A stretch of 64,000 nt of DNA, taken from Candidatus Saccharimonadota bacterium. GTDB lineage: Bacteria > Patescibacteriota > Saccharimonadia > QS-5-54-17. The stretch spans positions 1,623 through 65,622 of the forward strand of contig JBJHCT010000002.1 of the NCBI GenBank assembly GCA_050486185.1, given 5' to 3'. The notes under the pieces are model-generated. The model made no database searches. It worked only from the letters and a program-made list of their open reading frames with translations, and was not told the origin of the DNA. Shown in pieces: positions 34,831 to 62,262 of this stretch; positions within the stretch are counted from its first letter, which is position 1, and each line of letters begins with the position of its first letter. Both the position numbers and the translations under genes were made by a program.

Positions 34831-35889
34831 ATGGCCAAGAAACCTAATCAGGAAGAAGCCAACCAAAAAGCAACTGTTGATACAAGCAGTTCCTCTAGTT
34901 CTGGCTGGAAGCATTTCAGGTTGCAAAAGCCAGGCTCTGGCAACGACAAGCTAAACAATCGCTCAGTCAAAATAGCTGCATTAATAGCTACACTATTAAT
35001 CTTGGCGGTATTTGCTTGGGTAACAACCGATCCCTTGGATAGGTTGAGCGATAGCACAGATAGCGAAGAAGCCTTCAATATAGAGGGAGTGTCTTTTAGT
35101 GAAGATGATATAGCTCCTTATATAGATGGCGCTAGAGAAGTAGGTATAGATCCAGAAATTATGCGCCAAGCTATTGAAGAGGGTCTAACCTTTAAGGTTT
35201 TAGCCGATGAATACGGTGTAGAAATATCCGATGATTTAATCAGAGAAACTATAGAGAAATATGATAGCTACGACCCAGAGCTTGTAGAGACCAATGCTTG
35301 GGTTAGGTTAGTCGGTTTTAGGCTAGCTATGGAAGATCAGATTATGGAGTCTCCAGAAGGCGAAGCTAGGGGCTATGCCTTTATATTCTATTTCGGCACA
35401 CTAGCTGATGATTATGTACCGCCAGAAGAGATGGGTGAATCTCTACCAGAGGAAGTCGAGTCTCGATTAGGAGATGAAGGAGCGATAGCTGCCGATAGAG
35501 AATATGCTAGAGAGCAGGCCGAGTATTATCATTCAGAACTTACAGCCGGCAACATAACTGCTGATGAAGCTCTGGAAGCTATTAGAAATGACAATCGCTT
35601 AGTTCATAACTATCATGACAATCCAGAGTTGAGCTACTCACTGCAGTTTGGTTATAGCGACGAACTATCTTGGGATGCTGAGTTGTGGTTGCTAAATGCT
35701 AGAGAGTTTGTACAGCAATATGACGAAATCGATAATTATTCTGATATAAATCTAGGCAAACTCAATTACATAGAGGCAGAGGGTGAATACGATGCCTATT
35801 ACTACTTCGTATATTTAGAAGAGTCGGTCGGACCCTTAAGTGCTATAGCTAATAGAATTGTAGAATTAGGGATAGTAACGCCATGGTAA
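34831..35889 (+). CDS. Hypothetical N-terminally anchored acidic extracytoplasmic protein (352 aa)
   Basis: TM helix IAALIATLLILAVFAWV then an acidic domain. Its stop overlaps the next gene. Confidence 0.4.
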   Translation: MAKKPNQEEANQKATVDTSSSSSSGWKHFRLQKPGSGNDKLNNRSVKIAALIATLLILAVFAWVTTDPLDRLSDSTDSEEAFNIEGVSFSEDDIAPYIDGAREVGIDPEIMRQAIEEGLTFKVLADEYGVEISDDLIRETIEKYDSYDPELVETNAWVRLVGFRLAMEDQIMESPEGEARGYAFIFYFGTLADDYVPPEEMGESLPEEVESRLGDEGAIAADREYAREQAEYYHSELTAGNITADEALEAIRNDNRLVHNYHDNPELSYSLQFGYSDELSWDAELWLLNAREFVQQYDEIDNYSDINLGKLNYIEAEGEYDAYYYFVYLEESVGPLSAIANRIVELGIVTPW

Positions 35890-38099
35890 GAATTCTCAAA
35901 AAACTCAGTGTAGCCACTATTATGCTTTTTGCTTCAGTGGCTCTAGTCTCCCTAGTTTCCGCTGAAGAGGTTTACGCCAACGAGGGTTGTAATCAGTGGG
36001 GGGTAGTTAATGTTAGGGCTACTCATAGAGACACTAGGACCGGAGTGACCGGAAATGTGTCAGGAGTGACTGCTAACTTTAGCTCCAATATGAATGGGTC
36101 TAGAAGCAGTACAATATCAGGGGGTAGTACTAGTTTTGGTAATTTACGTTGTGGTTGCGTTGACGGCACTGGTCCAGCTAGCTACAGCGTTAGTGTTTCT
36201 GGTACTCCTAGCGGCACTGTTAGTGGTGGTAGTTGGAGTTCAAGTAATAGTAGTGGGACTATTAGGAACGGCTCTCCCGCAACTGCCACATTTACATATA
36301 ACTGGCAATCAACCTATTATAGATACGATACTAGTATTAGCGTTTCAGGTAGTTCGACCACTCCTAAGCCAGGTCAGGATATAACAGTTAGAGGTACAGT
36401 TAGAAATAGCGGCACTGACAATGGACGAGGCTACGATTATCGCATCAGGGTAACTAGTGGTAGCCAGTATTTGGTTAGCTCCAGTTCGTCCTCAGGCAGT
36501 GGTAGTGGTTTAAGCCGGGGTAGTAGCAGAAACCACTCAACAACATATAGGGTTAGGGATGATGCTCCGCATAACGTTCAGATTAGATTTGAATTTAGAG
36601 CCGGTAATTCTCGCCAAGAACAAGTTAGGCCGACTAGAAGAGTAGAAGATAGCGGCTATAGCACTAGTTCTGGCAGTACTAGGGTATACAACCAGCAGTT
36701 TGAGTTAAGCAATATTACTATATCTGGTGATGACAACTATGTAACACCAGGAATCAACGGCACCGATCTAGAGATATTAGTTAATGTAGTTAATAACGGT
36801 GACGTTACTTCAGCTCCATCAGCGATTAATAACTCGGGAGCCTCAGGGGGTACATCTAGCGGAGTAACAACTACTTTAGATGTTTATCGTAACGACCAGA
36901 GAGTTGATAGACAGACCTTTAGCGGCCAAATATCACGTGGTGCAGGTGGTAGAACTTTTGAGTATACCCACACTATTCCTAATTCAGACCCAGAAGATAC
37001 AGTTTATTGTTTCATAGCTTATTCTAATCCAACATCTGGTTGGAGTGATGGTTCTAGTTACCGAGGAGCGCCTTTCAGTAATGATCCAGAACCGGTCAGA
37101 ACTTCTGATAATGTCGATGATTGCGGCGACGAGAGTAGGGTAACCACCCAGGCCTATTTCCAAGTATCTCGTAACGATATATTCTCCGGCGTATCCTTTG
37201 CTGGCGGCAGTAATCCACTTACCGGCTGCTCACCTGTAGATGCTTCTAGAGCTTTCATAAGTGCTGCTAGGACTGGCACAGGCTCTAGCGACTACGGTTC
37301 ATTGGTAGAGTATGCTGCCTATGCACTAGATGTAATTAGTCGTTTTGGCACGGCCGTAGGAGTTGGCAATAATGTATCGGCGTCTAGTTTCTTTACAGCC
37401 TCACCTGGTAATGACGCTCTAGCCTTTGCTAATGAACCAAACCAAGGTTTCTTAGGCAACGATGCCTATAGATGTATGTCGGATCTATTTACTATGTTAG
37501 ATAAAGACCAGGCGGTTGTGCCTAACAACACCAACAACATATCTCTAGCTGGCTTATTCGGTAGCAGTAATGATATTCAAGTATATGGTGGTGATAATAC
37601 CAATATTAGAATTACCAACGGTAACCTAGGAAATGCCAACAACCGCAGACTAACTTTGATAGCTGATGGCGATATCACTATTACTAGCGATATCAGATAC
37701 CAGGGCAGCAGCTCTCAGTATCGATCAAATAACGTAGCAATCATTGCCAAGGGTAATATATTAATAGAAAGCGGAGTAGAAGAGATTAACGCTATGCTAT
37801 ACGCCATACCTAGAGATGAAGGCGGTGGCGGAGTAATAGATACTTGTTCTAATCATGAGAATCTAGGTACCGATGTTTGTGGCGATCAACTTAGGGTTAC
37901 TGGTGTGGTAGTGGCTGATAGGCTAGATCTAAAACGTACACACGGTGGTATATCAGGCGATCGAGATAGGGAGCCGGCTGAAATCTTCCGATTTTCTCCA
38001 GATATGTTTATTCGAGCACCTTTCTTTGTTTTTGCTGAAGGTGTGCCCACGCCGGATCTACAAGTTCAGCAATTAGTCGATTTACCACCACTGTTTTAA
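35883..38099 (+). CDS. Large secreted Ser/Gly/Thr/Asn-rich surface protein (738 aa), possibly beta-helical, directly upstream of pilM
   Basis: Signal peptide ...SLVSAEEVYA. Low-complexity S/G/T tracts and a C-terminal region with repetitive ...LTLIADGDITITSDIRYQGS...NVAIIAKGNILIESG... strands. Confidence 0.45.
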   Translation: MVRILKKLSVATIMLFASVALVSLVSAEEVYANEGCNQWGVVNVRATHRDTRTGVTGNVSGVTANFSSNMNGSRSSTISGGSTSFGNLRCGCVDGTGPASYSVSVSGTPSGTVSGGSWSSSNSSGTIRNGSPATATFTYNWQSTYYRYDTSISVSGSSTTPKPGQDITVRGTVRNSGTDNGRGYDYRIRVTSGSQYLVSSSSSSGSGSGLSRGSSRNHSTTYRVRDDAPHNVQIRFEFRAGNSRQEQVRPTRRVEDSGYSTSSGSTRVYNQQFELSNITISGDDNYVTPGINGTDLEILVNVVNNGDVTSAPSAINNSGASGGTSSGVTTTLDVYRNDQRVDRQTFSGQISRGAGGRTFEYTHTIPNSDPEDTVYCFIAYSNPTSGWSDGSSYRGAPFSNDPEPVRTSDNVDDCGDESRVTTQAYFQVSRNDIFSGVSFAGGSNPLTGCSPVDASRAFISAARTGTGSSDYGSLVEYAAYALDVISRFGTAVGVGNNVSASSFFTASPGNDALAFANEPNQGFLGNDAYRCMSDLFTMLDKDQAVVPNNTNNISLAGLFGSSNDIQVYGGDNTNIRITNGNLGNANNRRLTLIADGDITITSDIRYQGSSSQYRSNNVAIIAKGNILIESGVEEINAMLYAIPRDEGGGGVIDTCSNHENLGTDVCGDQLRVTGVVVADRLDLKRTHGGISGDRDREPAEIFRFSPDMFIRAPFFVFAEGVPTPDLQVQQLVDLPPLF

Positions 38100-38146: not shown

Positions 38147-39220
38147 GTGCTAAAATTACTACAAGCTATGGCTAATTTTTTATCAAATAAAATCAAGGAC
38201 AGTTTCTTTGCCCTAGATATAGGCTCTACGGCTGTGCGAGCTGTACAGCTTAAGGGTGTAGATATACCCAAGAACATCATGTCCTATGCGTCAGTACCTA
38301 TAGATCCTAGGATTGCAGAAAGCGATTCTAAGCAAGACTTACAATCCCTAAAAAAGACTATTGAGAAACTAATCAAAGATGCCGGTATCAGCGAAAAAAA
38401 CGTAGTGGCTGGTATACCTACCAAGAAAATATTTGCTTCCGTAGTAGATTTTCCTAAACTATCAGGTGCAGAGCTTAAGAAAACAGTCGAGTATCAGCTA
38501 GAGAGCCATGTACCGACATCGATAGATGAGGTCAAAGTTGACTGGGTGCCTCTAGGCCCGTCTTTAGTTGATGAGGATAAACTAGAGGTATTGATCGTTA
38601 GTGTGAATAAAGACTTTGCAGAAGAGCGCATGAACCTAATCGATGATTTAGGACTTAATACTATTGCTTTTGAACCAGATGCTATCGCTTTAACTAGATC
38701 CCTAGTCAGTAGTGGCTACAGTGGCTCTAGCTTGTTGCTTGATTTAGGCTATCTAAACACTGATTTAGTTATCACGGTTGGTGATAAGCCAAGATTAATC
38801 AGATCGGTACCTGTAGGTGGTCAATCATTCGTTAAAACAGTAGCTCAGAATTTAAACCTAGATGCTAATCAAGCCCAGCAGTTTGTTTATAAGTTTGGGT
38901 TAAGCACTGATAAGGCGGAGGGGCAAATATATAAGGCACTAGAGAACGTTGTAGAGAATTTAATTAGCGAGATTAGTAAATCGATTAAGTTCTTCTCCGA
39001 TCGATACTCCGGAGCTAAGCTAGACCGCATAGTAGTTACTGGTGGGGCATCGGCATTACCAGGACTGCCTTTATATATAGCCAATAGAACCGGTATACAG
39101 GTAGAGATCGGCAATCCTTGGCAGAACATCTCCTATTCTCCCAGCCAATACAATGAGTTGATTAGATTATCTAGTCACTATGCTACGGCTTTAGGTTTAG
39201 GATTGAGGGCTGAAGAATGA
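38147..39220 (+). CDS. pilM: Type IV pilus assembly protein PilM (actin-like ATPase)
   Basis: FALDIGSTAVRAVQL phosphate-1 motif; VTGGASALPGL. Confidence 0.75.
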   Translation: MLKLLQAMANFLSNKIKDSFFALDIGSTAVRAVQLKGVDIPKNIMSYASVPIDPRIAESDSKQDLQSLKKTIEKLIKDAGISEKNVVAGIPTKKIFASVVDFPKLSGAELKKTVEYQLESHVPTSIDEVKVDWVPLGPSLVDEDKLEVLIVSVNKDFAEERMNLIDDLGLNTIAFEPDAIALTRSLVSSGYSGSSLLLDLGYLNTDLVITVGDKPRLIRSVPVGGQSFVKTVAQNLNLDANQAQQFVYKFGLSTDKAEGQIYKALENVVENLISEISKSIKFFSDRYSGAKLDRIVVTGGASALPGLPLYIANRTGIQVEIGNPWQNISYSPSQYNELIRLSSHYATALGLGLRAEE

Positions 39221-39918
39221 TAACCATTAACTTACTCCCAGATATCAAGAAAGACTATATTAACGCTAGGCGGCAGCGTAACAAGGTGGTCGGCTGGTCT
39301 ATTTTTGCAGGAGGCGGCGCGATAGTCTTAGTAATTATTTCCTTAATTATTATAGCCGCTCAATGGGTAGTAGTTAATAATACTCGAGAGAATGTTGAGG
39401 CCTTAAGCCAAGAACTAGCAGACAAAGAAGATGTTATTGAATTAATAACTGTCCAAAACCAGCTACAAGTATTACCAGAACTGCACTTGCAAAAACCTAA
39501 AATTGATCGACTTTTTGAGTATCTGCAGTCACTGACTCCAGAAGGTGTGCGTTTGAGCTCAGTCAGACTAGATATGGATCGCCAAATCCTAGAAATCACC
39601 GGTAATGCTAGAAGCATTAGAGATTTTAATGCGCTGGTCGATACCTACAAGGCTACTCTCTATCAGGCGCAATCAGTAGATTCTAACGGTGATTCAACTA
39701 GTTTTTCCAGCCCCTTGGCGGCTTTTGAGGATGTTAGATCGGTAATGAGTATCGATGCAGCTACTCAGAATGCTAACTTTAGAATCACTATGGAGTTTGA
39801 CCCTGCTATATTTGACGCTCGCTACCCATCAGTTAGAATCTCTGCTAATGGTGTAGTTGCTGATGAAGATGATTCTGGCGAGGTTATTTTCGATGATTCA
39901 ATCGAGGTTGAGGAGTAG
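39217..39918 (+). CDS. pilN: PilN-like bitopic protein
   Basis: Single N-terminal TM after a basic stretch. Gene order pilM-N-O with 4-nt overlap. Confidence 0.5.
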   Translation: MITINLLPDIKKDYINARRQRNKVVGWSIFAGGGAIVLVIISLIIIAAQWVVVNNTRENVEALSQELADKEDVIELITVQNQLQVLPELHLQKPKIDRLFEYLQSLTPEGVRLSSVRLDMDRQILEITGNARSIRDFNALVDTYKATLYQAQSVDSNGDSTSFSSPLAAFEDVRSVMSIDAATQNANFRITMEFDPAIFDARYPSVRISANGVVADEDDSGEVIFDDSIEVEE

Positions 39919-39920
39919 CC

Positions 39921-40559
39921 ATGAATTTATTTGATATAAACCTCACCAAAGATACCAAGATAGATAAAATCAAATCGACCATGATGGCATCGGTCATAAT
40001 ATCTGTGATAGTTATATCTTTCTCGTTGGTATTTTTGAAGTTCTTATTTGACCTTTGGAGCTACAGCGGCAGAGTCTACTCGGCCCAAAGAGAGGCTCGA
40101 ACAGTACTAGAATCTAATATCGAGGCCTACGAGCAGATGAAGCCTGAGTTTGACGTACTCAACTCAGCTAGCGGTACACCAGCTAGCCCAGACTCTAGCG
40201 TAGTTTTAGATGCTTTGCCTCATATATATGACTTTCCAGCTCTAGCTGCTTCGATGAAAAAACTAGCTGATTTAAGCGGAGTACAGCTAGTAGCTTTTAG
40301 TGGAGTGGATGAGGAGGGAGCTGTACCGGGTCCATCTCCTACACCCGTGCCATATGATGTTCACTTTCGCATAGAAGTCGGTGGATCATATGATGATATT
40401 CAAGCCTTTATCAACTCTTTAGATACTTCTATACGGCCATTTGAAATTACAGCTATTGAATTATTTGGTTCTGATAATACATTGAGAGCTGATATTAGAC
40501 TTAAAACCTATTATCAGCCGACCAAGAATCTTAATTATCCACAAAGGGTGGTGCAGTAA
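39921..40559 (+). CDS. pilO: PilO-like bitopic protein
   Basis: TM helix plus periplasmic domain; gene position. Confidence 0.45.
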   Translation: MNLFDINLTKDTKIDKIKSTMMASVIISVIVISFSLVFLKFLFDLWSYSGRVYSAQREARTVLESNIEAYEQMKPEFDVLNSASGTPASPDSSVVLDALPHIYDFPALAASMKKLADLSGVQLVAFSGVDEEGAVPGPSPTPVPYDVHFRIEVGGSYDDIQAFINSLDTSIRPFEITAIELFGSDNTLRADIRLKTYYQPTKNLNYPQRVVQ

Positions 40560-40813
40560 TGTTAGAGCAAAAAGATATCATCGCCATATCATTAATAGCT
40601 GTTATGAGTTTCATAGCTTCTTTCTTCATAGCTGCAGCTTTGATAACTACACCTGAGGATAGGGCCGAGTCGGTGATGGAGGTTAACGAACTCTCATCTA
40701 ATTTCTCACATCCCGATAGCGCTATATTTAATGAAGATGCCATTAACCCTACAGAAGAGATAACTATTGGAGGCGATTCTGCCACTAATCCATTTGATTC
40801 AGATAGGGATTAG
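40559..40813 (+). CDS. Small single-TM protein after pilO (84 aa), C-terminal NPFDSD
   Basis: Paralogous in position and C-terminal motif to the 55348..55656 ORF in the second cluster. Confidence 0.3.
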   Translation: MLEQKDIIAISLIAVMSFIASFFIAAALITTPEDRAESVMEVNELSSNFSHPDSAIFNEDAINPTEEITIGGDSATNPFDSDRD

Positions 40814-40819
40814 CTTGAT

Positions 40820-42031
40820 ATGTTGACCTTTAAATACACCGCTAGAGACCCTAAAACGCATGAGGAAATTAAAGCCACTGTTCAGGCTCAGTCTCAGGCC
40901 GATGCCGTTAAATTAATTACTGATCAAGGGTTAATGCCTACTAATATAGAGGTACAGACCTCTGGTAGTAATAGGTTTTCTTCTAGTAATAAAATTAGCT
41001 CCAAAGACAAGATTGTCTTTTTCCGCCAGCTATCAACACTAGTTGGTGCTGGATTGCCACTAACTCAGTCTTTAAGAACAGTTATAGAACAGCTAGATAG
41101 CAAAGCTTTAGTTACTATCTTGATGCAGGTTGTATCAGATGTTGAGGGCGGCACACCTCTAGCAGATGCTATGGGTAAACACCCCAAAGTCTTTAGCGAT
41201 GTAGTAGTTAGCCTTATAGCTGCGGGTGAAGCTTCGGGAATGCTAGATGAATCACTCAAGCGAATAGCCGATCAGACTGAAAAAGATGCCGAGATGGTCT
41301 CTAAGGTTAGAGGTGCTTTGGTGTATCCAGCTATAGTACTATTTGTTATAGCTGCAGTTATTATCTTTATGTTAACTACAGTTTTACCACAGATAGAGTT
41401 ACTGTACGCAGATTTAAATCAAGACTTACCTCTAACAACCGATATCATGCTCAAGATGTCCAATGTCATAACCAAGCTATGGTGGCTGGTTATAATAATC
41501 TTGGCTGGTGGTGTATTTCTAGTAAAGAAATATATCGATACTGAAAGCGGCCAAAGGCGTTTTGATGCATTTAAGATGAAAGTGCCGCTATTTGGTAAGT
41601 TATTTAAGAAACTATATATGGCTCGATTCGCTAGAACTGGAGCTATATTGATGCAGAGTGGAGTACAGATGTTAGAGATGTTGCGAATTACCGCTAGAGC
41701 CGTTAACAACGCGCTGGTCGCTGATGATATTATTAAAGCCGCCGGTAAAGTCAGAGGCGGTAAGCAGCTATCAGAGTCTCTGCAAGATAGTGAGCACTTC
41801 CTATCCCTAGTACCACAGATGATTAGTATCGGTGAGAAGTCCGGGTCTATAGACGGCATGATGTCTAAAGCAGCAGATTTTTATGAGAAAGAGTTGGATG
41901 ATGAAATCAAGACTATCTCTACTACTATCGAACCACTATTAATGGTTGTATTAGCGGTGATAGCAGCCATTATGGTCGGGGCTATACTGCTACCGGTTTA
42001 CGGTCTAGTGGGCGGCAACATATCTTTGTAG
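40820..42031 (+). CDS. pilC: Type IV pilus platform protein PilC (GspF family)
   Basis: Two GspF repeats, 3 TM helices, 403 aa. Confidence 0.85.
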   Translation: MLTFKYTARDPKTHEEIKATVQAQSQADAVKLITDQGLMPTNIEVQTSGSNRFSSSNKISSKDKIVFFRQLSTLVGAGLPLTQSLRTVIEQLDSKALVTILMQVVSDVEGGTPLADAMGKHPKVFSDVVVSLIAAGEASGMLDESLKRIADQTEKDAEMVSKVRGALVYPAIVLFVIAAVIIFMLTTVLPQIELLYADLNQDLPLTTDIMLKMSNVITKLWWLVIIILAGGVFLVKKYIDTESGQRRFDAFKMKVPLFGKLFKKLYMARFARTGAILMQSGVQMLEMLRITARAVNNALVADDIIKAAGKVRGGKQLSESLQDSEHFLSLVPQMISIGEKSGSIDGMMSKAADFYEKELDDEIKTISTTIEPLLMVVLAVIAAIMVGAILLPVYGLVGGNISL

Positions 42032-42150: not shown

Positions 42151-42660
42151 ATGATAAATATTGATTCAATAAACAAGAAACTAAGATCAAGGAAACTTGA
42201 TAGTCAAAAGCAAGAAGGCTTCACTATTATTGAAGTAGTTTTGGTGCTGGCTATTGCCGGTCTAATCTTTCTAATCGTATTCTTAGCTCTACCGCAGTTG
42301 CAGAGCACTCAAAGAGACTCTCAAAGAAGGTCTGACTTGGGTAGATTTATGTCCGCACTCGAGACTTATGCATCTAACAACAACGGTAGGTATCCTAACG
42401 ATTCTGACTTGCAGCAGATGAACGCTTTTGTGGACGGCTACTTAACTAATCAAGGTGCTACTTTTAATGATCCACTGGAAGACGACTACCAGTTCGGCAA
42501 CGATCCTACTAGCCTAAGCTCGGGTACTATCTATTATCGAACAGGGGCTTACTGTGGTGACTCGGAAGGGACTTTTGCTACCGACGGTGCAGGGTCTAGG
42601 AATATAGCTGCTATGGTGCCTTTAGAGAATGGTATAGCTTACTGTATAGACAATAGGTAG
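42151..42660 (+). CDS. Type IV pilin (prepilin-type leader)
   Basis: Leader ...KQEG|FTIIEVVLVLAIAGLIF with Glu+5. 169 aa with a C-terminal Cys pair. Confidence 0.7.
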   Translation: MINIDSINKKLRSRKLDSQKQEGFTIIEVVLVLAIAGLIFLIVFLALPQLQSTQRDSQRRSDLGRFMSALETYASNNNGRYPNDSDLQQMNAFVDGYLTNQGATFNDPLEDDYQFGNDPTSLSSGTIYYRTGAYCGDSEGTFATDGAGSRNIAAMVPLENGIAYCIDNR

Positions 42661-42720: not shown

Positions 42721-43524
42721 ATGAGCCTCAAGCAACGCAAACAAAAACTAGCCACAAATTCAGGGTTTACTATCCTAGAATTAATTTTATTTGTAGCTAT
42801 ATCTAGTTTGATGTTGACTATAGCCTTTACTAGTGTGGCTGGCAGGACTCAAGAAGCTCAATTTACTGATTCGGTAAGGACTCTGGAGTCACAACTTCGT
42901 CGCCACATTACCAATGTTAGTACTGGTCTAAATCTTCGCGGCGATGTTGATTGTGCTAAGTCCGGAGGGGTCTTGACCTTTCCAGCTGATAGTAACGCTG
43001 TAGAGGCTGGTCGCAATCAATCTTGTGTAGCTAATGGCCTATATATGTCTTTTGATTTAGATACGCCCGAGAATTATGTTGTGCAGTCGGTAGCCTCAAC
43101 TATAGAGTATGATGAGAGTCTTGGATCTTTAGAGAACCTAGTTGATAAACTTGTCTCTATGGACGTAGGGTTAGTACCAAATACTAGGTCGGAAAACGAT
43201 ATAAGTTGGGGTACAGAATACAGAGGTGGCTTTGTAGATTATGACGGTTCCGTAACTGAGGTAGCTGATATAGCTTTCTTAAAAATGAGATCAATAAATT
43301 CAAGCAGCCAGTACATGTTTGCTTACGCCAGAGAAGCTGGCGATACCGATGTGGCTGATTTAGAGGGGGAGATCGCTAGATTTAGAGATGAGAATATCGT
43401 TCCGATTCCATCCAATGTAGAGTATGGAATGTGTTTTGAGGGTGCAAATCGTGATTTTGTAGCAGTTGTAGTTGGTGGTGACGGTCAATTTAGTTTAGTA
43501 TTTCGTGATGAGAGGTGTAGTTAA
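42721..43524 (+). CDS. Pilin-like protein (prepilin-type N-terminus)
   Basis: ...TNSG|FTILELILFVAISSLML, Glu+5. Confidence 0.6.
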   Translation: MSLKQRKQKLATNSGFTILELILFVAISSLMLTIAFTSVAGRTQEAQFTDSVRTLESQLRRHITNVSTGLNLRGDVDCAKSGGVLTFPADSNAVEAGRNQSCVANGLYMSFDLDTPENYVVQSVASTIEYDESLGSLENLVDKLVSMDVGLVPNTRSENDISWGTEYRGGFVDYDGSVTEVADIAFLKMRSINSSSQYMFAYAREAGDTDVADLEGEIARFRDENIVPIPSNVEYGMCFEGANRDFVAVVVGGDGQFSLVFRDERCS

Positions 43525-45245
43525 TGTTCAACCTCTTTAAATCTACCTCTAACTCTCGCGGTGAAACCATCGTTGAGGTTCTTCTTGCTACAGTCATCCT
43601 CTCCACAGTTATCGCCGGAGCATATACTCTCTCTACTCGTGCCACTAGAATTGGTCAAGCCTCTATCGAACGTACGGAAGTTACTAATCAAGTCCAATCA
43701 AATGCCGAGGTCTTACGAGGCATTAGCTTCGAAAGAGGAGCTGCCTGGTCAAGAATAGTCACAGACGATGAAGAGACTAGTTTTGTGACTAACATCAAAC
43801 CTATCTATGATGAAACTACTTGTGAACCAACTCCTGGTTCTAGACCCTTCATCATCAACCAAGACAACATCGGCACGCCCGATGAAGACTCAGACAACGT
43901 CTTTGGTGCTAACGTCATAGAACCTTTCGAGACAGATGACGTATTAGACGAGAGTATCTATAGCTTCTGGATAGAAGCTTACCAAGAGACTGATAACTAT
44001 ATAGACTTCCACATTAGAGCCTGTTGGCAGAACCTAACCGGTTCTAGCTACAACCGTTCAGGAGCTGTACTGAGACTATATAGCGGCACCCAAGGTGGTT
44101 GGGGTAGATTCGTCTCTGGTCCTACTAGAAGATTACCCCTAGTAACCACTGATGCTATCTCTAATATCGAACCTGATTCTGCTAATACAGGCGGTAATGT
44201 AGCTGATGATGGTGGGGCTAGTGTAACTGCTCGTGGCATAGTCTACGCCACCTCTGCCTCACCGACCTTGAGTGATAACGAGATTAGACGAGGTGCCGGC
44301 ACCGGCTCCTTTAGCGTTAGCTTAACTAACCTCCAACCAGAAACCACCTACTATGTCAGAGCTTATGCTACTAACTCCTTTGGTACTTCCTATGGTAATG
44401 AGAGGGTCTTTGAGACCGATAGTGATGGTATAGAGGCTACTGGCGGATCCCAAACCACAGTTACTATTAGCGGAGAAACATACCGTGTGCATAGGTTCAC
44501 TGGTAACGGTAACTTTAGAATGCTATCAGATGAGGGTCGGGTAGAAGTACTAATAGTAGGCGGTGGTGGAGGAGGTGGTAACAATGGCGGCGGTGGCGGC
44601 GGGGCTGGCGGCGTAGTAGTTAGAACTTTAACTTTATCTAGCGGTACCTATACAGTTAGAGTCGGCAGTGGTGGTCGTGGAGCTTGTTGTTCAGGTTCTG
44701 TAACTAACTCTAATCGAGGCGCTAATGGTCAAAACTCTTCTTTTGATAGTATAGTTGCTCGTGGCGGCGGAGGCGGAGGCGGCAGGGGTACTAGCGGTAT
44801 AGGTGGTGCTAGTGGCGGCGGCGGAGGAGCTAGAGGTAATACTTCAGGTGGTTCTGGCATATCAGGGCAAGGTAATAGGGGTGGTAATGGGAGTAACCAT
44901 AGCTCTAGACCATCTGGTGGCGGTGGCGGATATGCCTCAGTCGGTATTCACGCAGCCTCAAGTAGAGGTGGTCATGGTGGCCACGGTTTTAACTCCAGTT
45001 CTTGGGGGATAGGTCGTAGCTGTGTGGCTGGCGGTGGCGGAGGCGCAATTTTGAGTGGATCTATTGGGGTAGGTCGTTGCGGCGGCGGTAATGGCGGTTT
45101 CGGTGGCAGTCCATATAACCAACCCCAATCACAGATATCGGCTACTGCTAATACTGGCGGAGGCGGTGGCGGCGGAAACAATCTAGCTGCTAGTGGCGGT
45201 GGGCACGGAGGCTCAGGAATAGTAGTTATTCGTTATCTTGATTAA
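43524..45245 (+). CDS. Large pilin-like protein with FN3-like module and poly-glycine C-terminal half
   Basis: ...NSRG|ETIVEVLLATVILS, Glu+5. An FN3-like ...TYYVRAYATNSFGTSYGNERVF segment. About 230 aa of G5-7 blocks. Confidence 0.6.
   Translation: MFNLFKSTSNSRGETIVEVLLATVILSTVIAGAYTLSTRATRIGQASIERTEVTNQVQSNAEVLRGISFERGAAWSRIVTDDEETSFVTNIKPIYDETTCEPTPGSRPFIINQDNIGTPDEDSDNVFGANVIEPFETDDVLDESIYSFWIEAYQETDNYIDFHIRACWQNLTGSSYNRSGAVLRLYSGTQGGWGRFVSGPTRRLPLVTTDAISNIEPDSANTGGNVADDGGASVTARGIVYATSASPTLSDNEIRRGAGTGSFSVSLTNLQPETTYYVRAYATNSFGTSYGNERVFETDSDGIEATGGSQTTVTISGETYRVHRFTGNGNFRMLSDEGRVEVLIVGGGGGGGNNGGGGGGAGGVVVRTLTLSSGTYTVRVGSGGRGACCSGSVTNSNRGANGQNSSFDSIVARGGGGGGGRGTSGIGGASGGGGGARGNTSGGSGISGQGNRGGNGSNHSSRPSGGGGGYASVGIHAASSRGGHGGHGFNSSSWGIGRSCVAGGGGGAILSGSIGVGRCGGGNGGFGGSPYNQPQSQISATANTGGGGGGGNNLAASGGGHGGSGIVVIRYLD
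44560..45240 (+). repeat. Low-complexity GGN-codon tract encoding poly-Gly blocks
   Basis: Repeated ggcggtggcggaggc-type runs; the antisense frames give the spurious Pro-rich ORFs in the track. Confidence 0.6.
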
Positions 45246-46463: not shown

Positions 46464-47114
46464 GTGAGGAGGGTAAATCTAATGGGTAAAGGTTTCTGGG
46501 CAGTACTAGGTTTAATAGTAGTAGTAATGGTAGGTGTAGTTATAGCTTTTGGCGATAGGGACTCTGCTCCAAGAGAGGTGATAGAGAACCCTCATGAGAT
46601 TACCGAAGAAGATAATGCGGTAGGCCCAAGTGATGCACCGATAACTTTAGTAAAATATAGCGATTTTCAGTGTCCAGCTTGTGAAGTCGGCTATCGGGCC
46701 TTAAAGGATATCAAGGTTGAATTTGCAGATGATTTACAATTTGTTTACCGTCACTCACCGTTTCTCACGCAAGCCTATGATGCGGCTAGAGCCTCAGAAG
46801 CTGCTGCAAGGCAAGATATGTTTTGGCAGATGCACGATATGCTATTTGAAAGACAATCGCAGTGGAGCGGTAACGCCAATATCCGCAGCTTATTTGAATC
46901 TTACGCTGAAGAGCTAGATATGGATGTCGACCAATATAGGGAAGATTTTGAGAATGCTGGCTCTAGGGTTGAGCGAGATGTAGCTATTCGTGATCAGATT
47001 GATGTTATCGGCACTCCTACCTACTTCATAAATGGTGAGAGGTTGCCGGAGAATCCTCAGACTAGTGAGAGATTTGCAGAGATTATATCTGAATACTTAG
47101 CAGATATAGAGTAG
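46464..47114 (+). CDS. DsbA-like thiol:disulfide oxidoreductase (thioredoxin fold, membrane-anchored)
   Basis: N-terminal TM helix and a CPAC active site (FQCPACEV). Confidence 0.65.
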   Translation: MRRVNLMGKGFWAVLGLIVVVMVGVVIAFGDRDSAPREVIENPHEITEEDNAVGPSDAPITLVKYSDFQCPACEVGYRALKDIKVEFADDLQFVYRHSPFLTQAYDAARASEAAARQDMFWQMHDMLFERQSQWSGNANIRSLFESYAEELDMDVDQYREDFENAGSRVERDVAIRDQIDVIGTPTYFINGERLPENPQTSERFAEIISEYLADIE

Positions 47115-55347: not shown

Positions 55348-55656
55348 TTAAGGGCTAAAAGGATCCTGAGTACCTAAGTCTCCCAAAGACTCATCGACAT
55401 TAACCTCTACTAGATTGTCTATTTTATCTCTTAATTCCTCATCTACATTAATACCGATTTGCTGGCTTTCAAATAGTTGCTCCAAGCGTCGGTTTTCATC
55501 GATAACTGGGTTGCTAATTGGTCTAATCTTGATCAACGTATAGCCAAACAGTACCAGAATAAGCAACCAAATAGCTATTAAGCGGTAGCGAGATATAAAT
55601 CTAATACCTTTCTTGGCTGTTAGTAGTAGTTGGTCTTTATCAGGTAATAACTTCAT
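55348..55656 (-). CDS. Small single-TM protein after pilO (102 aa), C-terminal QDPFSP
   Basis: Position and tail motif parallel the 40559..40813 ORF. Confidence 0.3.
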   Translation of the reverse strand: MKLLPDKDQLLLTAKKGIRFISRYRLIAIWLLILVLFGYTLIKIRPISNPVIDENRRLEQLFESQQIGINVDEELRDKIDNLVEVNVDESLGDLGTQDPFSP

Positions 55657-56210
55657 GGCTTCAAAAATACCTCTAAATTAATACTAAACTGCAGTCCACT
55701 GCCAGATCTTGATATGTTTAGGTTACTTATCTGCATATGCCTCTTATTATTTTCAAGAGCCTCTAAAAGCTGAATAAATTCTTGGTATGAGCTTACGATC
55801 TGGAATCTAACCGGCATTATTCTCACATTAGGTATGCTAGAAGTTAGGGTTTGACTAATTTCACCGGGTCTGCCGCTCGTTGATTCAAAACTCAAACCTC
55901 TTAATTCAAGCCCGACACTACTGACTATAGCCTGTAGCTGTAGGGCTACTTTGGCCTGTTCTTTTTCTTCTGGTAGTATCTTGTACACACTGTCTCGTAG
56001 ATCAGCCAACTCAGCGTATTCTTGCTCGAGTTGCTCTAAGCTAGTCAACCTTTCGTTGATTACCGATATATCAGTCATTAGTACTGATAGATTATCGGCT
56101 TTACCAGCTAAAGCCCTATGACTCATCCAGAAGCCAACCAGTCCAACCATAATTACTAAGCTCACAATAGTCACGAGAGTGATGAAGAGTTGTTTGGGGG
56201 TGATATTCAT
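55653..56210 (-). CDS. pilO: PilO-like bitopic protein
   Basis: TM helix plus coiled-coil; gene order. Confidence 0.45.
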   Translation of the reverse strand: MNITPKQLFITLVTIVSLVIMVGLVGFWMSHRALAGKADNLSVLMTDISVINERLTSLEQLEQEYAELADLRDSVYKILPEEKEQAKVALQLQAIVSSVGLELRGLSFESTSGRPGEISQTLTSSIPNVRIMPVRFQIVSSYQEFIQLLEALENNKRHMQISNLNISRSGSGLQFSINLEVFLKP

Positions 56211-56746
56211 CTGGCTGCTCCCTCACTAAATTTCATAACTACCTCTACGTTATATCCATTTGAACCGGCAGAAATGGATTGAGTGTCAACAGATTCAATA
56301 CGGGCGCTACTGCTTAGAGCTTCTTGAAGCAGGCTGGCTTGATTGAACGATCTAGTGGTAACAGTAATCCTGACAGGCTGATCATCCTGGCCAGTTAGTA
56401 CGATGCTGTTTATGTAGGCATCAGGCGGCAAGGTATCGGCTAGATCCTCTAACAAGGCGCTAAACCTGGTCTGCTGAGACATCAGCTGATCAATGGTATT
56501 AAGCCGATTATTCAACGAGGAGACATTAGTTTCTAAATCCTGGTAGCTATTTAGTTGCTGCTGTGATCTGGCTAATGACTGAGAATACTCCTCGATCTGC
56601 CTATCGGCAAAAACGTGAGCAGTGTATAGGGTTGCTGCTAGAAGCAGTGATAGGCCGACAATTAATATTAGTAGCCGCAACAAAAGAATGTTATGTTTGG
56701 AAAACTTAACCTGATCTTTTAACTCTGGAGGCAGCAAGTTAATCAT
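56207..56746 (-). CDS. pilN: PilN-like bitopic protein
   Basis: MINLLPPELK start then TM helix, typical PilN N-terminus. Confidence 0.55.
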   Translation of the reverse strand: MINLLPPELKDQVKFSKHNILLLRLLILIVGLSLLLAATLYTAHVFADRQIEEYSQSLARSQQQLNSYQDLETNVSSLNNRLNTIDQLMSQQTRFSALLEDLADTLPPDAYINSIVLTGQDDQPVRITVTTRSFNQASLLQEALSSSARIESVDTQSISAGSNGYNVEVVMKFSEGAAR

Positions 56747-57803
56747 CGCTAACCTCCTTAAGAGCTAAGCCAACAGCGGTAGTGTATAAAGATACCTCGT
56801 TTTTATGGGGTGGCTGTAAAGGGGAGACTTTGATATTAGCCAAAGGGTTACAGGTGCTAACCGGTATACCGGTTAAATGGGCTATAAAGTCACTCATGCC
56901 CGGTAAGGATGATCCACCACCTACGACAACTATCTCTTCAATATGCTGATCGAATTTAGAGTGCTCATGGTGGTATCTAAGCATTTTCTGAACTTCATTA
57001 GCTAAAGAGTTTAGCATAGGCGATAGTACTGAAGTTAGCTGAGACTGCCACTTACTTTCTGTAATGCCGTAACGATTCTTGATTTTCTGGGCTTGATGCT
57101 TATCGATTCCTAGCGCTTGAGCAATAGCATTGGTTATATCTAAACCACCAGTGTCTACAGAACCGATTAGCTGTAAACCTTGATCGTAAATAGCTAGGTC
57201 GCTAGACTCGGCCCCGAAGTCAATAATTACTTTGGGTTTTTGATTACCCACACTATGGTTAACAGCTCTAACAATAGCTGATAGGTTAGGCTCAATAATC
57301 TCTACCTCGAGACCTAAAACGCCAAAAAGATTAATATATGAATCAACCACTTTTTTAGGAGTAGCTACTATCAAAACTAGCATTTCATCACTCTTTTCAT
57401 CAGCATCTTTGGTGATAGTGTAATCTAAATATATTTGATCAGGTGGCAAGGGTACATACTGTTCAGCCTGCATGCGTATAGCGGTCTCTAAGTCATCACC
57501 GCTAAGCCTAGGCAGAGTGATAGCTCTGGCGAATATCTGTGAAGTAGGGATAGATATAGCTACTCGATTGGTAGTAACTTCGCCGATAATCGATTGACCT
57601 AGTAGTTCTTTAATCGACTGGGCAATTACTTGAGGTTGTTTAATCTCTCCACCCTCAATAGCTTTTGGATCAAAGCTATTGTAGCCATAACCAACTGCCT
57701 CTACTTGATTTTTGGTCTTTGATATCTGGGCTACTTTAATAGTCTGTAGTCCAATATCTACTCCAAATATGGGTTTTTGTTTATAAAACAGTGCTTTACT
57801 CAT
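56739..57803 (-). CDS. pilM: Type IV pilus assembly protein PilM
   Basis: IFGVDIGLQTIKVAQI, VVGGGSSLPG. Confidence 0.75.
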   Translation of the reverse strand: MSKALFYKQKPIFGVDIGLQTIKVAQISKTKNQVEAVGYGYNSFDPKAIEGGEIKQPQVIAQSIKELLGQSIIGEVTTNRVAISIPTSQIFARAITLPRLSGDDLETAIRMQAEQYVPLPPDQIYLDYTITKDADEKSDEMLVLIVATPKKVVDSYINLFGVLGLEVEIIEPNLSAIVRAVNHSVGNQKPKVIIDFGAESSDLAIYDQGLQLIGSVDTGGLDITNAIAQALGIDKHQAQKIKNRYGITESKWQSQLTSVLSPMLNSLANEVQKMLRYHHEHSKFDQHIEEIVVVGGGSSLPGMSDFIAHLTGIPVSTCNPLANIKVSPLQPPHKNEVSLYTTAVGLALKEVSDD

Positions 57804-57871
57804 AATATTACCATTAGCATTATATCAGGGATAGTTAACCAGTGCGATTGGGAGTAGTCTGTATATTCTCC

Positions 57872-59281
57872 TTATTCAAATATCTGTTGATAGTTTTTAA
57901 TAGACCAAACACTTTGACCGGATGATAGTTCCTGTCCAAAAGTAATGTTACCGGTGTTGCCTAAATGAATGGTCTGACCCAAGATTGCTCCGACTGAACC
58001 ACTGTTACTTAACTCAACTTTACTCCAACGAGCATAGAATTTACTACCGGCCGCTAGAGAGGAGTTGTCTAAAGTTATGGTAGTAATTGATTGTGAATTA
58101 TATAAATCAACGCCGCTAACTTCACTACAATCTGGTGAACAGCTAGCAGTGGAGTGAAAAGTGATGAATTCTACACCTAAACCATCAGAGTTAGTTAGTA
58201 TTTTCGAGGAGTTACGCATCTCGATGCCATCTGAGCCATCAACCATAATAACTGGCAAGTTTTCACTAATAGTATCTGATATCTCAATAGTTCCAGAGTT
58301 TCTCATACTCAAACTTCCATCCATCCAAACATCGCCCTCTACTACAACGGTACAGCTACGCCTAATACTCACATCACCACCAGTAATATGGGTGTTAGCT
58401 GGCCAAGTTTTGACTTGATTGTTGTTGGTGCAGCTAGCTTCAATATTAGTCATGGTATTAGTCGCAGCATCTTGATGAGCTTGACGATCGTACTCTGGTA
58501 GATCAACGGGATCACTGCTACTACCTTCGATTAATCCCGGACTATACATACCGCTACCATTAGTTTGGTTAGTGGCACGTACCTCACCATATATACTGGC
58601 TTGATTACTTATACTGATGGGTTCACCACTAGTGCACTGTGAAGGAAAGCTGCTATCTGGGGGTTCAGGGCAGAACATATGGGCTACATAAACATTACCA
58701 GGATTATCTTCACTACCGATACGAGCGCTATTGCTCATATTGATATAGCCATTAACATAGACATCGCCATTAGCAATGGTAGCGCTATTGGACATAATCA
58801 GACCTCCTGGGCCGGTCTGTATAGAGTAATCATCAGTAGTCGTACCGACCACTACTAAACGAATGCTACGGCTAATTAAAGGATCACTAGCCGTACTCGG
58901 CATATAGACTCGACCAGTAGCAGTAATTATCTTTTCGTTACTTAAACCACCTTCGGCGATAGTAGTTTGATAGGTAACCCTACCTTGTGTTTGATTTTGT
59001 GCGAACACTTCCTCACTTTGATATCCAGCAAAATCACTGTCATTATTTAATTCGTGTAAAGTTTTCTCAGCCCCGGCTTCAGCTGCCAGCATGGCGTTGG
59101 CTCGAGCTATACCTCGATCGGCAATATTCATCTGAGCTAAGACCAGGCTAGATAAAGACAAGCCAACAGTTAGAATTATTAGCATTATTACTAAAAGAGT
59201 AGGCAGTATCATACCTTGAGAATTATCGACTTTATTCATTTCTAAATACTCCCCTAATACTAAAGTCTGCCTGCAAATCAC
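57872..59281 (-). CDS. Large pseudopilin-like protein (PilX/GspK-like N-terminus without Glu+5), beta-rich C-terminal domain
   Basis: ...NSQG|MILPTLLVIMLIILTVGLSL hydrophobic N-terminus. 469 aa. Overlaps the upstream pilin gene. Confidence 0.4.
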   Translation of the reverse strand: MICRQTLVLGEYLEMNKVDNSQGMILPTLLVIMLIILTVGLSLSSLVLAQMNIADRGIARANAMLAAEAGAEKTLHELNNDSDFAGYQSEEVFAQNQTQGRVTYQTTIAEGGLSNEKIITATGRVYMPSTASDPLISRSIRLVVVGTTTDDYSIQTGPGGLIMSNSATIANGDVYVNGYINMSNSARIGSEDNPGNVYVAHMFCPEPPDSSFPSQCTSGEPISISNQASIYGEVRATNQTNGSGMYSPGLIEGSSSDPVDLPEYDRQAHQDAATNTMTNIEASCTNNNQVKTWPANTHITGGDVSIRRSCTVVVEGDVWMDGSLSMRNSGTIEISDTISENLPVIMVDGSDGIEMRNSSKILTNSDGLGVEFITFHSTASCSPDCSEVSGVDLYNSQSITTITLDNSSLAAGSKFYARWSKVELSNSGSVGAILGQTIHLGNTGNITFGQELSSGQSVWSIKNYQQIFE

Positions 59282-59921
59282 GAGAGTAGACTCGATCAGA
59301 AATCGATAAATCTACTCTAACCGATCGAGCATTTTCATCTTCTGGCGAAACTTCTTCATCTTCAAAACTGAAGTAGGTGATGGTGAAATTACTGACATTA
59401 GAAGCTAGTAGGGTATCTGATGGACACCCAGTGGTTCCGCTTGGACAGGTAGTACCAGCAGCGTTACCCTCAACATCAGCTGCTAATATGCGCTTATATA
59501 AATTACCGTTATCTAGGAAATAAACTAAATTATTCTTGTGGGTGATATAGGCAAAAGGATCTTCATATATGAAGTTATTGTTACTATCTACAACAGGGGA
59601 GGCTAAAATCAAAACTTCGCCATTTGACACCCAGCTATAATCATCAGCAGGTGAGTCAGGCGCATGAGAGTCTGGCCAACGATTAATCTCATCTACTCGA
59701 GCGCTATGTTTAATGTCTTGATTAATAACTTCCAGGCTAATCTGAGCGTCCATTAGTAGTTTCGATCTAGCTGAAGCTATGGCATTGGCTACAATCTTAT
59801 CACTAAAGAAACTCAAGATAATGGCAATCAAGATACCGGTCACAGCTGTAACTACAATCAGCTCTATCAGAGTAATGCCTCGGCTTCGGTGTTTAAGTTT
59901 GAATAATGATTTTTGACTCAT
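59232..59921 (-). CDS. Minor pilin-like protein (prepilin-type)
   Basis: ...HRSRG|ITLIELIVVTAVTGILIA, Glu+5. Confidence 0.6.
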   Translation of the reverse strand: MSQKSLFKLKHRSRGITLIELIVVTAVTGILIAIILSFFSDKIVANAIASARSKLLMDAQISLEVINQDIKHSARVDEINRWPDSHAPDSPADDYSWVSNGEVLILASPVVDSNNNFIYEDPFAYITHKNNLVYFLDNGNLYKRILAADVEGNAAGTTCPSGTTGCPSDTLLASNVSNFTITYFSFEDEEVSPEDENARSVRVDLSISDRVYSRDLQADFSIRGVFRNE

Positions 59922-60373
59922 TGCGATATCCCGATAGAACCGATAATGCCGGTTAATATAATAGTTTTACCATCAGGACTTTGGGCGTAGGTAATGTTAA
60001 CTTCTAACTCTTTGAGGCCTGGTGTATCTTCACTGACATGAACTTGAGCAGATCTTGGTTCTGGCAGTTCTTGAGGTAGCTCATCGGTAAAATCGATAAT
60101 AGTATCAGGCTCTAGTGAGTTGTAGTGGTTATTTCTAAGAGACTCGATCTTAGCCTCGCCAGCTTTAGTAGCTAATTCGATATTATGAGTGCGTCTCTGT
60201 ATGGTGTCTATAGATATAAATAGCTGGAATACCCCTACTACTATTAGGCTGAATATAGACATAGCAATCAATAACTCTATGAGGGTAAATCCAAGATTAG
60301 AAGGTGTTTGTGGCAATGCTTTCAATACAAAGTCCTTAAGGTTTAATATAACTAATTCTAGCACTAATACCAC
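59918..60373 (-). CDS. Minor pilin-like protein (prepilin-type)
   Basis: ...SNLG|FTLIELLIAMSIFSLIV. The annotated N-terminus is probably too long. Confidence 0.55.
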   Translation of the reverse strand: MVLVLELVILNLKDFVLKALPQTPSNLGFTLIELLIAMSIFSLIVVGVFQLFISIDTIQRRTHNIELATKAGEAKIESLRNNHYNSLEPDTIIDFTDELPQELPEPRSAQVHVSEDTPGLKELEVNITYAQSPDGKTIILTGIIGSIGISQ

Positions 60374-60470
60374 CTAGACTACATTGGGATCAATAAATAA
60401 ACCGGCTGCAAATTAGTGCAACCGGTTTAAGTCGTGCGACCACTTTTAGTTGAGGCAGCTCTTCTTTAAG

Positions 60471-62252: not shown

Positions 62253-62262
62253 TTTAAAACCC

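Follow-up and report, generated by a model that had tools for sequence, protein, structure and literature searches.

The gene and its product

The window examined here is a stretch of 64,000 nucleotides (nt) from a Candidatus Saccharimonadota bacterium (contig JBJHCT010000002.1), and the target gene is an open reading frame (ORF) on its forward strand that encodes a protein of 573 amino acids (aa; Table 1). An initial annotation, made from the sequence alone, had placed at positions 43524–45245 a prepilin-type protein with an FN3-like module and a long poly-glycine C-terminus. The ORF is present at this position, and its translation contains the strings quoted at the time, namely SRG/ETIVEV (a slash marks the predicted cleavage site throughout), TYYVRAYATNSFGTSYGNERVF and a C-terminal ...GSGIVVIRYLD. 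It is highly probable that the product consists of three modules: a pilin module, an Ig/FN3-like module and a glycine-rich domain of the Gly_rich_2 family. As a whole, the protein is probably a modular minor type IV pilin that displays a module for receptor binding close to the tip of the pilus. The bacterium is Saccharimonadia-like and episymbiotic, ultrasmall and probably dependent on a host.

The public protein collection contained a protein identical to the target (P0001) and an ortholog of the same layout with 80 % identity (P0002), the latter from an independent metagenome-assembled genome (MAG) annotated as Candidatus Saccharimonadales. Affiliation of the bacterium with this group is supported by orthologs in Ca. 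Saccharimonadales/Saccharimonadia MAGs that have synteny in common with the window. Homology searches with the whole protein were dominated by the FN3-like stretch; beyond P0001 and P0002, all listed matches (P0003–P0120) cover this stretch only. The modules were therefore searched separately.

Glycine comprised 36 % (92 of 253) of the C-terminal 253 residues of the target, in which runs of five to seven glycines (G5-7) occur seven times. Shuffling of these residues gave 0.95 ± 0.9 such runs, and seven were reached in none of 5000 shuffles. The glycine runs reported in the initial annotation are thus real, but their number is seven and not about five. The same annotation had raised the possibility that the region is an assembly artefact of low-complexity reads. 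This was not borne out, because Tandem Repeats Finder detected only two GGC-type stretches of 17–28 nt and no long repeat in the gene, because glycine codons are mixed (GGT 38, GGC 34, GGA 14 and GGG 6) and because P0002 has the same layout in an independent MAG. The higher GC content of the glycine-rich module (54 % versus 42 % for the window) was considered as a sign of horizontal transfer and rejected, as GGN codons explain the difference.

Glycine-rich module

The C-terminal module matched the Pfam family Gly_rich_2 (PF21722) with 70.1 bits (E 3.5e-19; gathering cut-off 24.3 bits) over model positions 12–225 of 226. More than 2000 proteins match this domain. An alignment of 100 homologs had a conserved pattern with many invariant glycines, the consensus being ATGG..Y..HTFTSSG..VEYLVVAGGGGGG..GGGGAGG..Y.VTVGAGG..NSSF..GGGGGG..GQGNNGG in the first half and ..GGGGGGAG..YAGGGGGG..GTANTGGGGGGG..GGSGIVIIRY in the remainder. 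Nine to ten glycine-rich motifs were counted in the target (nine windows, the first of which holds two G-runs), and the strands ETYRVHRF, VEVLIV, VVVRTLTL, TYTVRV, SSFDSIVA and IVVIRY make up the predicted core of a TNF-like beta-sandwich. Between aa 346 and 565 there is one Asp and no Glu, and the GGxGxD motif was not found.

Structure prediction, which the initial annotation had proposed as a check, was performed with AlphaFold2 on the 100-homolog alignment and returned a compact glycine-rich domain, with a predicted local distance difference test (pLDDT) score above 90 for aa ~305–573 and a handful of beta strands. According to DSSP, approximately 150 residues of the module are neither helix nor strand at a pLDDT of 89–98. 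The glycine motifs are predicted to be packed as a lattice of the polyglycine-II type, for which these confidently modelled but unassigned residues provide indirect support.

All of the top 23 Foldseek matches in the PDB were TNF-like/glycine-rich proteins. These comprised chains Qb and Qa of 9d93 (mycobacteriophage Bxb1 tail tip; E 1e-5), 7ypx (cyanophage Pam3 tail fibre; E 3e-5, template modelling (TM) score 0.51), the TG domain of LTK at rank 4 (7nx1) and, at ranks 7–23, many ALK entries together with three other entries. A Foldseek search of the BFVD database found 202 viral matches at E ≤ 1e-3 (best E 1.7e-22), with query TM scores up to 0.65, values of 2–3 Å for the root-mean-square deviation (rmsd) over 240–290 columns and 35–45 % identity. 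The sources of these matches included tailed phages, cyanophages, a pelagiphage, the haloarchaeal phage HF2 and prasinoviruses. In the viral proteins the module is C-terminal and distal, as is typical of receptor-binding tips. The link between the module of the target and solved structures is one of fold only.

The C-terminal module is therefore a known, folded and widespread domain in the fold class of phage fibre tips and ALK/LTK. Among the three options considered in the initial annotation for this region, a flexible extension gives way to the known Gly_rich_2 domain with more than 2000 homologs and a compact predicted fold, and a beta-roll-like tail does not agree with the missing GGxGxD motif and the single acidic residue in aa 346–565; the third, an adhesive module on the pilus, is favoured by the evidence. 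The label 'poly-glycine' was an overstatement, as the domain is conserved and beta strands are interspersed in it. The present result provides a plausible role in cellular organisms, as well as a fold, for a Pfam domain that is very common but uncharacterised.

Pilin module

The leader of the target, MFNLFKSTSNSRG, ends in G13 at position −1 and is followed by Glu; E18, at position +5, precedes the hydrophobic alpha1N segment VLLATVILSTVIAGAY. Residues G13, T15, I16, V17, E18, V19, C100 and C167 were invariant in the protein alignment of the module (alignment A2), as was a DFH.R.CW motif. The spacing G-x4-E was present in all of the 148 best pilin-module relatives. Loss of the PilD site in orthologs, named in the initial annotation as evidence that would speak against a processed leader, was thus not observed. 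The residue at +1 was Asp in 145 of these relatives, Glu in two and Ser in one, giving an acidic residue in 147, and the near-invariant family motif is G/[DE]T[ILV][IV]EV (proteins P0241–P0394). An acidic residue at +1 typifies this minor-pilin family and is unusual for type IV pilins, with possible consequences for N-methylation or for the salt bridge of Glu5 to the N-terminus.

A search with the pilin module alone returned six close homologs, all stand-alone proteins of 172–202 aa. An exhaustive profile search identified 3729 representative relatives at E ≤ 1e-3, mostly stand-alone proteins of 160–230 aa, and so defines a large family of minor pilins whose +1 residue is acidic. AlphaFold2 tentatively predicted a lollipop-like arrangement of a helix (aa 12–70) plus a sheet (strands within aa 146–186) at a pLDDT of 74. 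Members of the family have weak, sub-threshold matches to PilV, GspI and GspJ over the helix. At a more distant locus (L005), the ortholog is the second of four genes, encoding 268, 172, 214 (GFTLVE) and 387 aa (no Glu5), that lie near a pilin gene and pilD, and their order is that of GspH-I-J-K and FimU-PilV-PilW-PilX. Because of these matches and this gene order, the pilin module is described, with moderate confidence, as a putative PilV/GspI-like minor pilin.

The designation of the target as a prepilin-type protein was upheld by the conserved G/[DE]TxxEV leader and alpha1N segment, the tentatively predicted lollipop and the coupling of the gene to a minor pilin gene at the close of a pilMNO-pilC-pilin cluster (see below).

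Middle module

The stretch between the pilin and glycine-rich modules gave sub-threshold Pfam matches to fn3 (17.8 bits, cut-off 25) and Pur_ac_phosph_N (20.6 bits), and in NCBIfam it matched the N-terminal domain of the BT0360 arabinanase (E 2e-8). Matches to PDB sequences were weak and fell on FN3 and Ig domains. Hundreds of multi-repeat proteins of Bacteroidota, with tandem copies, match this stretch only. The AlphaFold2 model was poor here, the alignment used having no coverage of the region. These results weakly suggest an Ig/FN3-like sandwich. The FN3-like module of the initial annotation accordingly keeps an Ig/FN3-like signal from Pfam, NCBIfam and PDB sequence matches, but fn3 itself remains below its cut-off.

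Position in a pilus gene cluster

The target is the final gene of a cluster containing pilM, pilN, a pilO-like gene, pilC, a candidate major pilin gene and a minor pilin gene (Table 1). Its ATG overlaps the TAA stop codon of the preceding minor pilin gene by 1 nt (TAATG), and a GAGAGG site lies upstream; translation of the target is therefore considered to be coupled to that of the minor pilin. The genes on the 3' side of the target encode, in order, a Na+/H+ exchanger, a DsbA-like thioredoxin and another exchanger. The window also contains a second, complete type IV pilus cluster on the minus strand. This second cluster contains two components that are missing from that of the target, an assembly ATPase and, at 59232–59921 and 57872–59281, J/K-like minor pilins. 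Two pilus systems are a known arrangement in Saccharibacteria (PMC11623550).

Table 1. Features of the window that relate to the target gene and to the pilus systems
Feature	Position	Strand	Description and basis
Whole target gene, trimodular minor pilin (pilin, Ig/FN3-like and Gly_rich_2 modules)	43524–45245, including stop codon	+	573 aa; ORF list and translation
Ribosome-binding site GAGAGG (43510–43515) and start codon	43510–43526	+	Read from sequence; GAGAGG 8 nt upstream of start
Predicted class III leader, aa 1–13, MFNLFKSTSNSRG	43524–43562	+	Gly(−1) at end; predicted cut G13/E14; Pfam N_methyl aa 9–34
Pilin module, aa 14–190, PilV/GspI-like (putative)	43563–44093	+	Hydrophobic alpha1N, Glu +5, small beta-sheet head with invariant C100 and C167
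Linker, aa 191–208, module boundary	44094–44147	+	Low pLDDT; protein alignment A2, DNA alignment A3
Ig/FN3-like beta-sandwich module, probable spacer, aa ~209–300	44148–44423	+	Weak Pfam, NCBIfam and PDB sequence matches
Gly_rich_2 module, aa ~301–573	44424–45242	+	Pfam match aa 335–571; PF21722, AlphaFold2, Foldseek PDB, BFVD
Two genes directly 5' of pilM	34831–38099	+	352 aa; 738 aa with apparent signal peptide; no Pfam match for either
Pilus machinery: pilM, pilN, pilO-like gene, 84-aa ORF, pilC	38147–42031	+	Pfam PilM_2, PilN, PilO (weak), T2SSF
pilM	from 38147	+	
pilN	from 39217	+	
pilO-like gene	from 39921	+	
84-aa ORF	40559–40813	+	Between pilO-like gene and pilC
pilC	from 40820	+	
Candidate major pilin	42151–42660	+	169 aa; canonical G/FTIIE; Pfam N_methyl 24.1 bits, TIGR02532; 50 % identical to L005 pilin
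GspH-like minor pilin	42721–43524	+	267 aa; G/FTILE; homologous to the 268-aa gene preceding the pilin-module ortholog in L005
DsbA-like thioredoxin	46464–47114	+	Two genes 3' of target
Second, complete type IV pilus cluster	55348–63822	−	pilB, pilC, three N_methyl pilins, PilX/GspK-like protein, pilM/N/O
Second cluster, pilM/N/O	55653–57803	−	
Second cluster, PilX/GspK-like protein	57872–59281	−	469 aa; no Glu5, no Pfam match
Second cluster, three N_methyl pilins	59232–59921, 59918–60373, 60471–60905	−	
Second cluster, pilC	61038–62252	−	
Second cluster, pilB	62263–63822	−	
N/Q/H/G-rich protein	26263–28299	+	678 aa; low-complexity N-terminus

Synteny with four close relatives (L001–L004) breaks on the 5' side of the target, where these relatives have genes for glutamate dehydrogenase and 2-hydroxyacid dehydrogenase in place of the pilus cluster. 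The 3' arrangement of Na+/H+ exchanger, DsbA-like gene and exchanger-TrkA is common to the window and the relatives, and the position of the DsbA-like gene is conserved in L002–L004. Conserved cysteines of the target are located in the pilin head (C100 and C167) and in the glycine-rich module (C388, C389, C500 and C519), and the DsbA-like protein may serve disulfide formation in both. The cysteine pairs, together with this gene, would fit an extracytoplasmic protein stabilised by disulfides.

Recurrence of the fusion

Class III N-termini confirmed by Pfam were present in four of the 118 closest Gly_rich_2 proteins (P0126, P0128, P0153 and P0217). One of these, P0153, has the same pilin-fn3-Gly_rich_2 order as the target, while P0126 is of Planctomycete type and carries DUF1559. 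Three of the 40 genome loci with relatives, L040 and L016 being among the loci with fusions, likewise encode proteins with pilin-type N-termini, from Pelagibacterales, Parcubacteria and Ca. Microsaccharimonas; the Parcubacteria protein combines N_methyl with Gly_rich_2. Most Gly_rich_2 members are proteins of 300–470 aa with tail-fibre-like N-termini, and pilin N-termini account for about 3–8 %. The architecture is thus rare but recurrent, notably in candidate phyla radiation (CPR) lineages. Giant pilins with glycine-rich tails had been called unusual in the initial annotation, which is correct as to their rarity, but they recur, and modular pilins are well described (PMC8179133). None of the papers searched names Gly_rich_2, and those retrieved on pilins with polyglycine or on Saccharibacteria pili contain no description of the domain on a pilin.

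Two of these cases have further features. In another small-genome bacterium (L049:3117-6381 and L050:4026-7290), P0217 directly follows a 657-aa protein with a lectin-type Laminin_G_3 domain, and both lie between pilB/pilC and pilM, so that two pilins with different cargo adjoin. The pilin-like protein of the Ca. Microsaccharimonas MAG JBASWP010000002.1 (L016:2935-7644) is much larger than the target, with 1569 aa. Its N-terminus, RGFALPTVLI, is of the GspK/PilX type and has no Glu5, and the Gly_rich_2 domain is present in four tandem copies (196 bits).

Evolution of the modular arrangement

The nearest stand-alone ortholog of the pilin module, P0241 (192 aa), is without the second and third modules and has the same 3' synteny as the target (Na+/H+ exchanger, DsbA-like gene and exchanger-TrkA). 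Its C-terminus reads ...RLYTGSVNR and lies 49 nt before the next gene. Similarity between P0241 and the target ends directly after ...RLY(S/T)G, and similarity to the DNA of the window stops at the same place. The pilin modules of P0002 and P0241 are 88 % identical, compared with 75 % for the window versus P0002 and 72 % for the window versus P0241. The two proteins bearing the extension (the target and P0002) are not each other's closest relatives by pilin module.

Synonymous divergence (dS) between the window and L001 was saturated (>2) in all modules alike, and only the observation that non-synonymous divergence (dN) is far below dS is usable. The dN was 0.12 for the FN3-like and glycine-rich parts and 0.21 for the pilin head. 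In the simplest scenario, the extension was inherited vertically under purifying selection and then lost from the P0241 lineage by a clean deletion of recent date; recombination is a possible alternative.

Among the 150 best representatives of the pilin family, approximately ten have other C-terminal extensions, one with three Lcl_C (C-type-lectin-like) repeats and the rest with no Pfam match. Because the carrier occurs on its own in a close relative and with other cargo elsewhere in the family, the pilin module is interpreted as a reusable carrier, and the FN3-like and glycine-rich cassette as an accessory, exchangeable cargo. The near-identical relative with a bare pilin and no module provides a natural comparison.

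Comparison with known systems

Modular type IV pilins are well established as a class whose members present their cargo at the tip, according to PMC8179133. The target resembles PilB (vWA) and PilC (lectin) of Streptococcus sanguinis, as described there, in combining a small class III pilin carrier, a short linker and a bulky non-pilin module, and also in its predicted display at or near the tip and its predicted role in adhesion. FN3 (IPR003961) is among the cargo domains listed for modular pilins in that source, as in the target, whereas Gly_rich_2 is not named among the architectures in its main text. Unlike PilB and PilC, the target is trimodular and has a PilV/GspI-like carrier with an acidic +1 residue.

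Within Saccharibacteria, TM7x PilX2 is a minor pilin that is needed for host binding and is a proposed tip adhesin, and neither PilX1 nor PilX2 is predicted as a PilD substrate (PMC11623550). These proteins resemble the target in coming from Saccharibacteria with two pilus systems, in being large minor pilins that have additional C-terminal domains and in their non-canonical signal peptides. The domains themselves are set apart by their descriptions: a jelly-roll resembling L-type lectins in PilX1 and a lectin-like seven-bladed beta-propeller in PilX2 (PMC11623550), versus FN3-like and glycine-rich modules in the target.

The phage fibre tips provide the closest comparison for the glycine-rich module. 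In Pam3 gp24, a TNF-like sandwich carries six loops whose twelve glycine-rich motifs (GGGGxGG) are stacked at ~5 Å through hydrogen bonds of the main chain. Receptor binding has been proposed for the distal loops, which are variable, and the protein is structurally similar to S16 gp38 and ALK (PMC9608196). Chains Q of 9d93 are the Bxb1 tail tip with a 'polyglycine-rich domain', as reported second-hand in PMC13252515. The tips of Pam3 (gp24, 7ypx), Bxb1 (9d93) and Salmonella phage S16 (gp38, 6F45) are like the target, as modelled, in having a TNF-like or related core, stacked glycine-rich motifs, variable distal loops and a distal C-terminal location. The number of motifs is also similar, with approximately ten in the target, twelve in gp24 and ten in gp38 (PMC9608196). 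Similarity to these tips is confined to the fold (21–26 % identity, TM 0.43–0.51). In contrast to the phage tips, the module of the target sits on a pilin and not on a trimeric fibre shaft, has no neighbouring chaperone gene and is presumably monomeric. Pfam PF21722 proteins of phages, giant viruses and bacteria share with the target the full-length domain and its consensus (ATGG..YxxHTFTSSG..VEYLVVAGGGGGG...GGSGIVIIRY).

The ligand-binding TG domain of ALK and LTK (7nx1, 7lrz and 7n00) is of the same supradomain type as the module of the target and provided matches at ranks 4–23 of the Foldseek PDB search. However, ALK and LTK are animal receptor kinases, with 13–18 % identity and TM scores of 0.2–0.26, which indicates a fold analogy or very distant homology and not membership of the same family.

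Proposed mechanism and alternatives

Core minor pilins (GspI-J-K and PilV-W-X) prime pilus assembly and end at the filament tip. Because of this location, and because modular pilins present their cargo at the tip (PMC8179133), the target would also be displayed there. Cleavage by prepilin peptidase would occur after G13, and the pilin module would then join other minor pilins in a priming complex that ends at the pilus tip. The FN3-like module may act as a spacer that holds the glycine-rich module outward, and the latter would be made rigid by a lattice of backbone hydrogen bonds. Variable loops between the glycine motifs would bind a surface receptor, probably on the envelope of the host bacterium, and retraction of the pilus would then pull the cell onto the bound surface. 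Receptor or ligand binding is the role of the same fold in Pam3 gp24, S16 gp38 and ALK (PMC9608196). On balance, this tip-adhesin mechanism is regarded as fairly probable. Little is known of how the ultrasmall CPR/Patescibacteria find and hold their hosts, with type IV pili as the foremost candidates (PMC11623550). The target is a concrete candidate for a determinant of host recognition, with a glycine-lattice module of the phage-fibre-tip kind that is predicted to be rigid.

Several observations weigh against this reading. The Pfam N_methyl (PF07963) score of the target was 20.3 bits and below the cut-off of 21.2 bits, which was exceeded by the orthologs P0241 (22.2 bits) and P0245 (22.0 bits), and the +1 residue is Glu and not the usual hydrophobic Phe, Met, Leu or Val. 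The acidic residue lowers the likelihood of a pilin without excluding it, because +1 substitutions are reportedly tolerated for cleavage in mutagenesis of P. aeruginosa pilin. The initial annotation's description of the leader as 'bona fide' therefore holds for G(−1) and E(+5), which all 148 best relatives have, but is slightly generous with regard to the +1 residue and the domain score. Foldseek detected no significant PDB match to the N-terminal pilin model, tblastn detected no prepilin peptidase gene (pilD) in the window, and the target's own cluster has no assembly ATPase within it. In the close relatives L001–L004 the gene is not adjacent to pilus genes, so that either of the two pili may take up the target. 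Similarity of the glycine-rich module to solved TG domains is modest (TM 0.25–0.51 with a large rmsd, a predicted model serving as query), and sequence and profile searches of this module against PDB sequences returned only low-complexity noise (single-chain variable fragment linkers, IC140 and CCDC6). Comparison of the window with P0002 revealed no hypervariable loops, the glycine-rich module being 84 % identical and the pilin head 68 %. Cleavage, pilus incorporation, tip location and ligand are all inferred.

Some of these observations would suit a surface protein anchored in the membrane by its N-terminal helix, whether cleaved or not, or a component of a short pseudopilus like those of the type II secretion system (T2SS) or Com systems, whose modules bind substrates or neighbouring cells without a pull by retraction. 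The atypical +1 Glu and sub-threshold N_methyl score, the separation of the L001–L004 orthologs from pilus genes and the missing ATPase agree with such a protein, as do the weak family matches to the T2SS pseudopilins GspI and GspJ; TM7x PilX1 and PilX2 are likewise not predicted PilD substrates (PMC11623550). However, family-wide invariance of G(−1) and E(+5) is sensible only for peptidase processing and filament assembly, the target is translationally coupled to a minor pilin 3' of a candidate major pilin and pilMNOC, and a family member at L005 belongs to a four-gene minor-pilin set near pilD. The surface or pseudopilus alternative is hence unlikely. A structural or protective function of the glycine-rich module, as a rigid cap for stabilising or lengthening the tip complex or as a decoy hiding the pilus from phages specific to pili, would be in keeping with the greater conservation of the module relative to the pilin head, the lack of obvious hypervariable loops and the absence of the module from the close relative P0241. 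It is improbable, given that this fold is the receptor- or ligand-binding part in every characterised protein that has it (Pam3 gp24, S16 gp38 and ALK/LTK; PMC9608196), that the module is distal and C-terminal in viral proteins and that the module of P0217 adjoins a lectin-type modular pilin.

The remaining two explanations deny a folded module or the fusion itself. The high glycine content (36–38 %) and repeated G-runs would be expected of a flexible low-complexity tail or a Ca2+-binding RTX-type beta-roll. A disordered tail was rejected on the full-length match to a curated Pfam family, the invariant glycines across 100 homologs and the pLDDT above 90, and an RTX beta-roll on the absence of GGxGxD, the acidic content of aa 346–565 (one Asp, no Glu) and the TNF-like/glycine-rich structural matches; both are very improbable. 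An artefact of assembly or gene calling, such as a chimeric contig in which a pilin gene and a phage tail-fibre gene were joined, or mis-assembly of low-complexity reads, is considered the most remote explanation of all, even though the module boundary is exactly where a close ortholog ends and the glycine-rich module is common in phages. An independent MAG has the same fused architecture at 80 % identity, the reading frame runs on without interruption, dN is far below dS in all modules, long DNA repeats are absent, the 3' synteny is intact and independent pilin-Gly_rich_2 fusions exist elsewhere.

A broader and tentative proposal is that CPR epibionts and phages share one toolkit for recognition of bacterial envelopes. 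An FN3 plus TNF-like/polyglycine receptor-binding cassette, of a type found at phage tail-fibre tips, would have been grafted onto a core (PilV/GspI-like) minor pilin and might set which host cell is grabbed by the pilus. Gain and loss of the cassette, and perhaps its exchange with phages, would occur over short evolutionary distances. This proposal is doubtful at present; were it true, these changes would amount to a host-range switch.

Further features of the window

A scan for promoters and terminators performed no better on the window than on shuffled sequence. The 84-aa ORF within the cluster of the target has a hydrophobic N-terminal segment and no Pfam match. The 352-aa and 738-aa genes directly 5' of pilM may encode lineage-specific pilus or surface components. 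Further upstream, the 678-aa protein has an N-terminus of low complexity that is strongly enriched in N, Q, H and G (MSQQQKTDNRSNNNQNNHQKGGNRNQG...).

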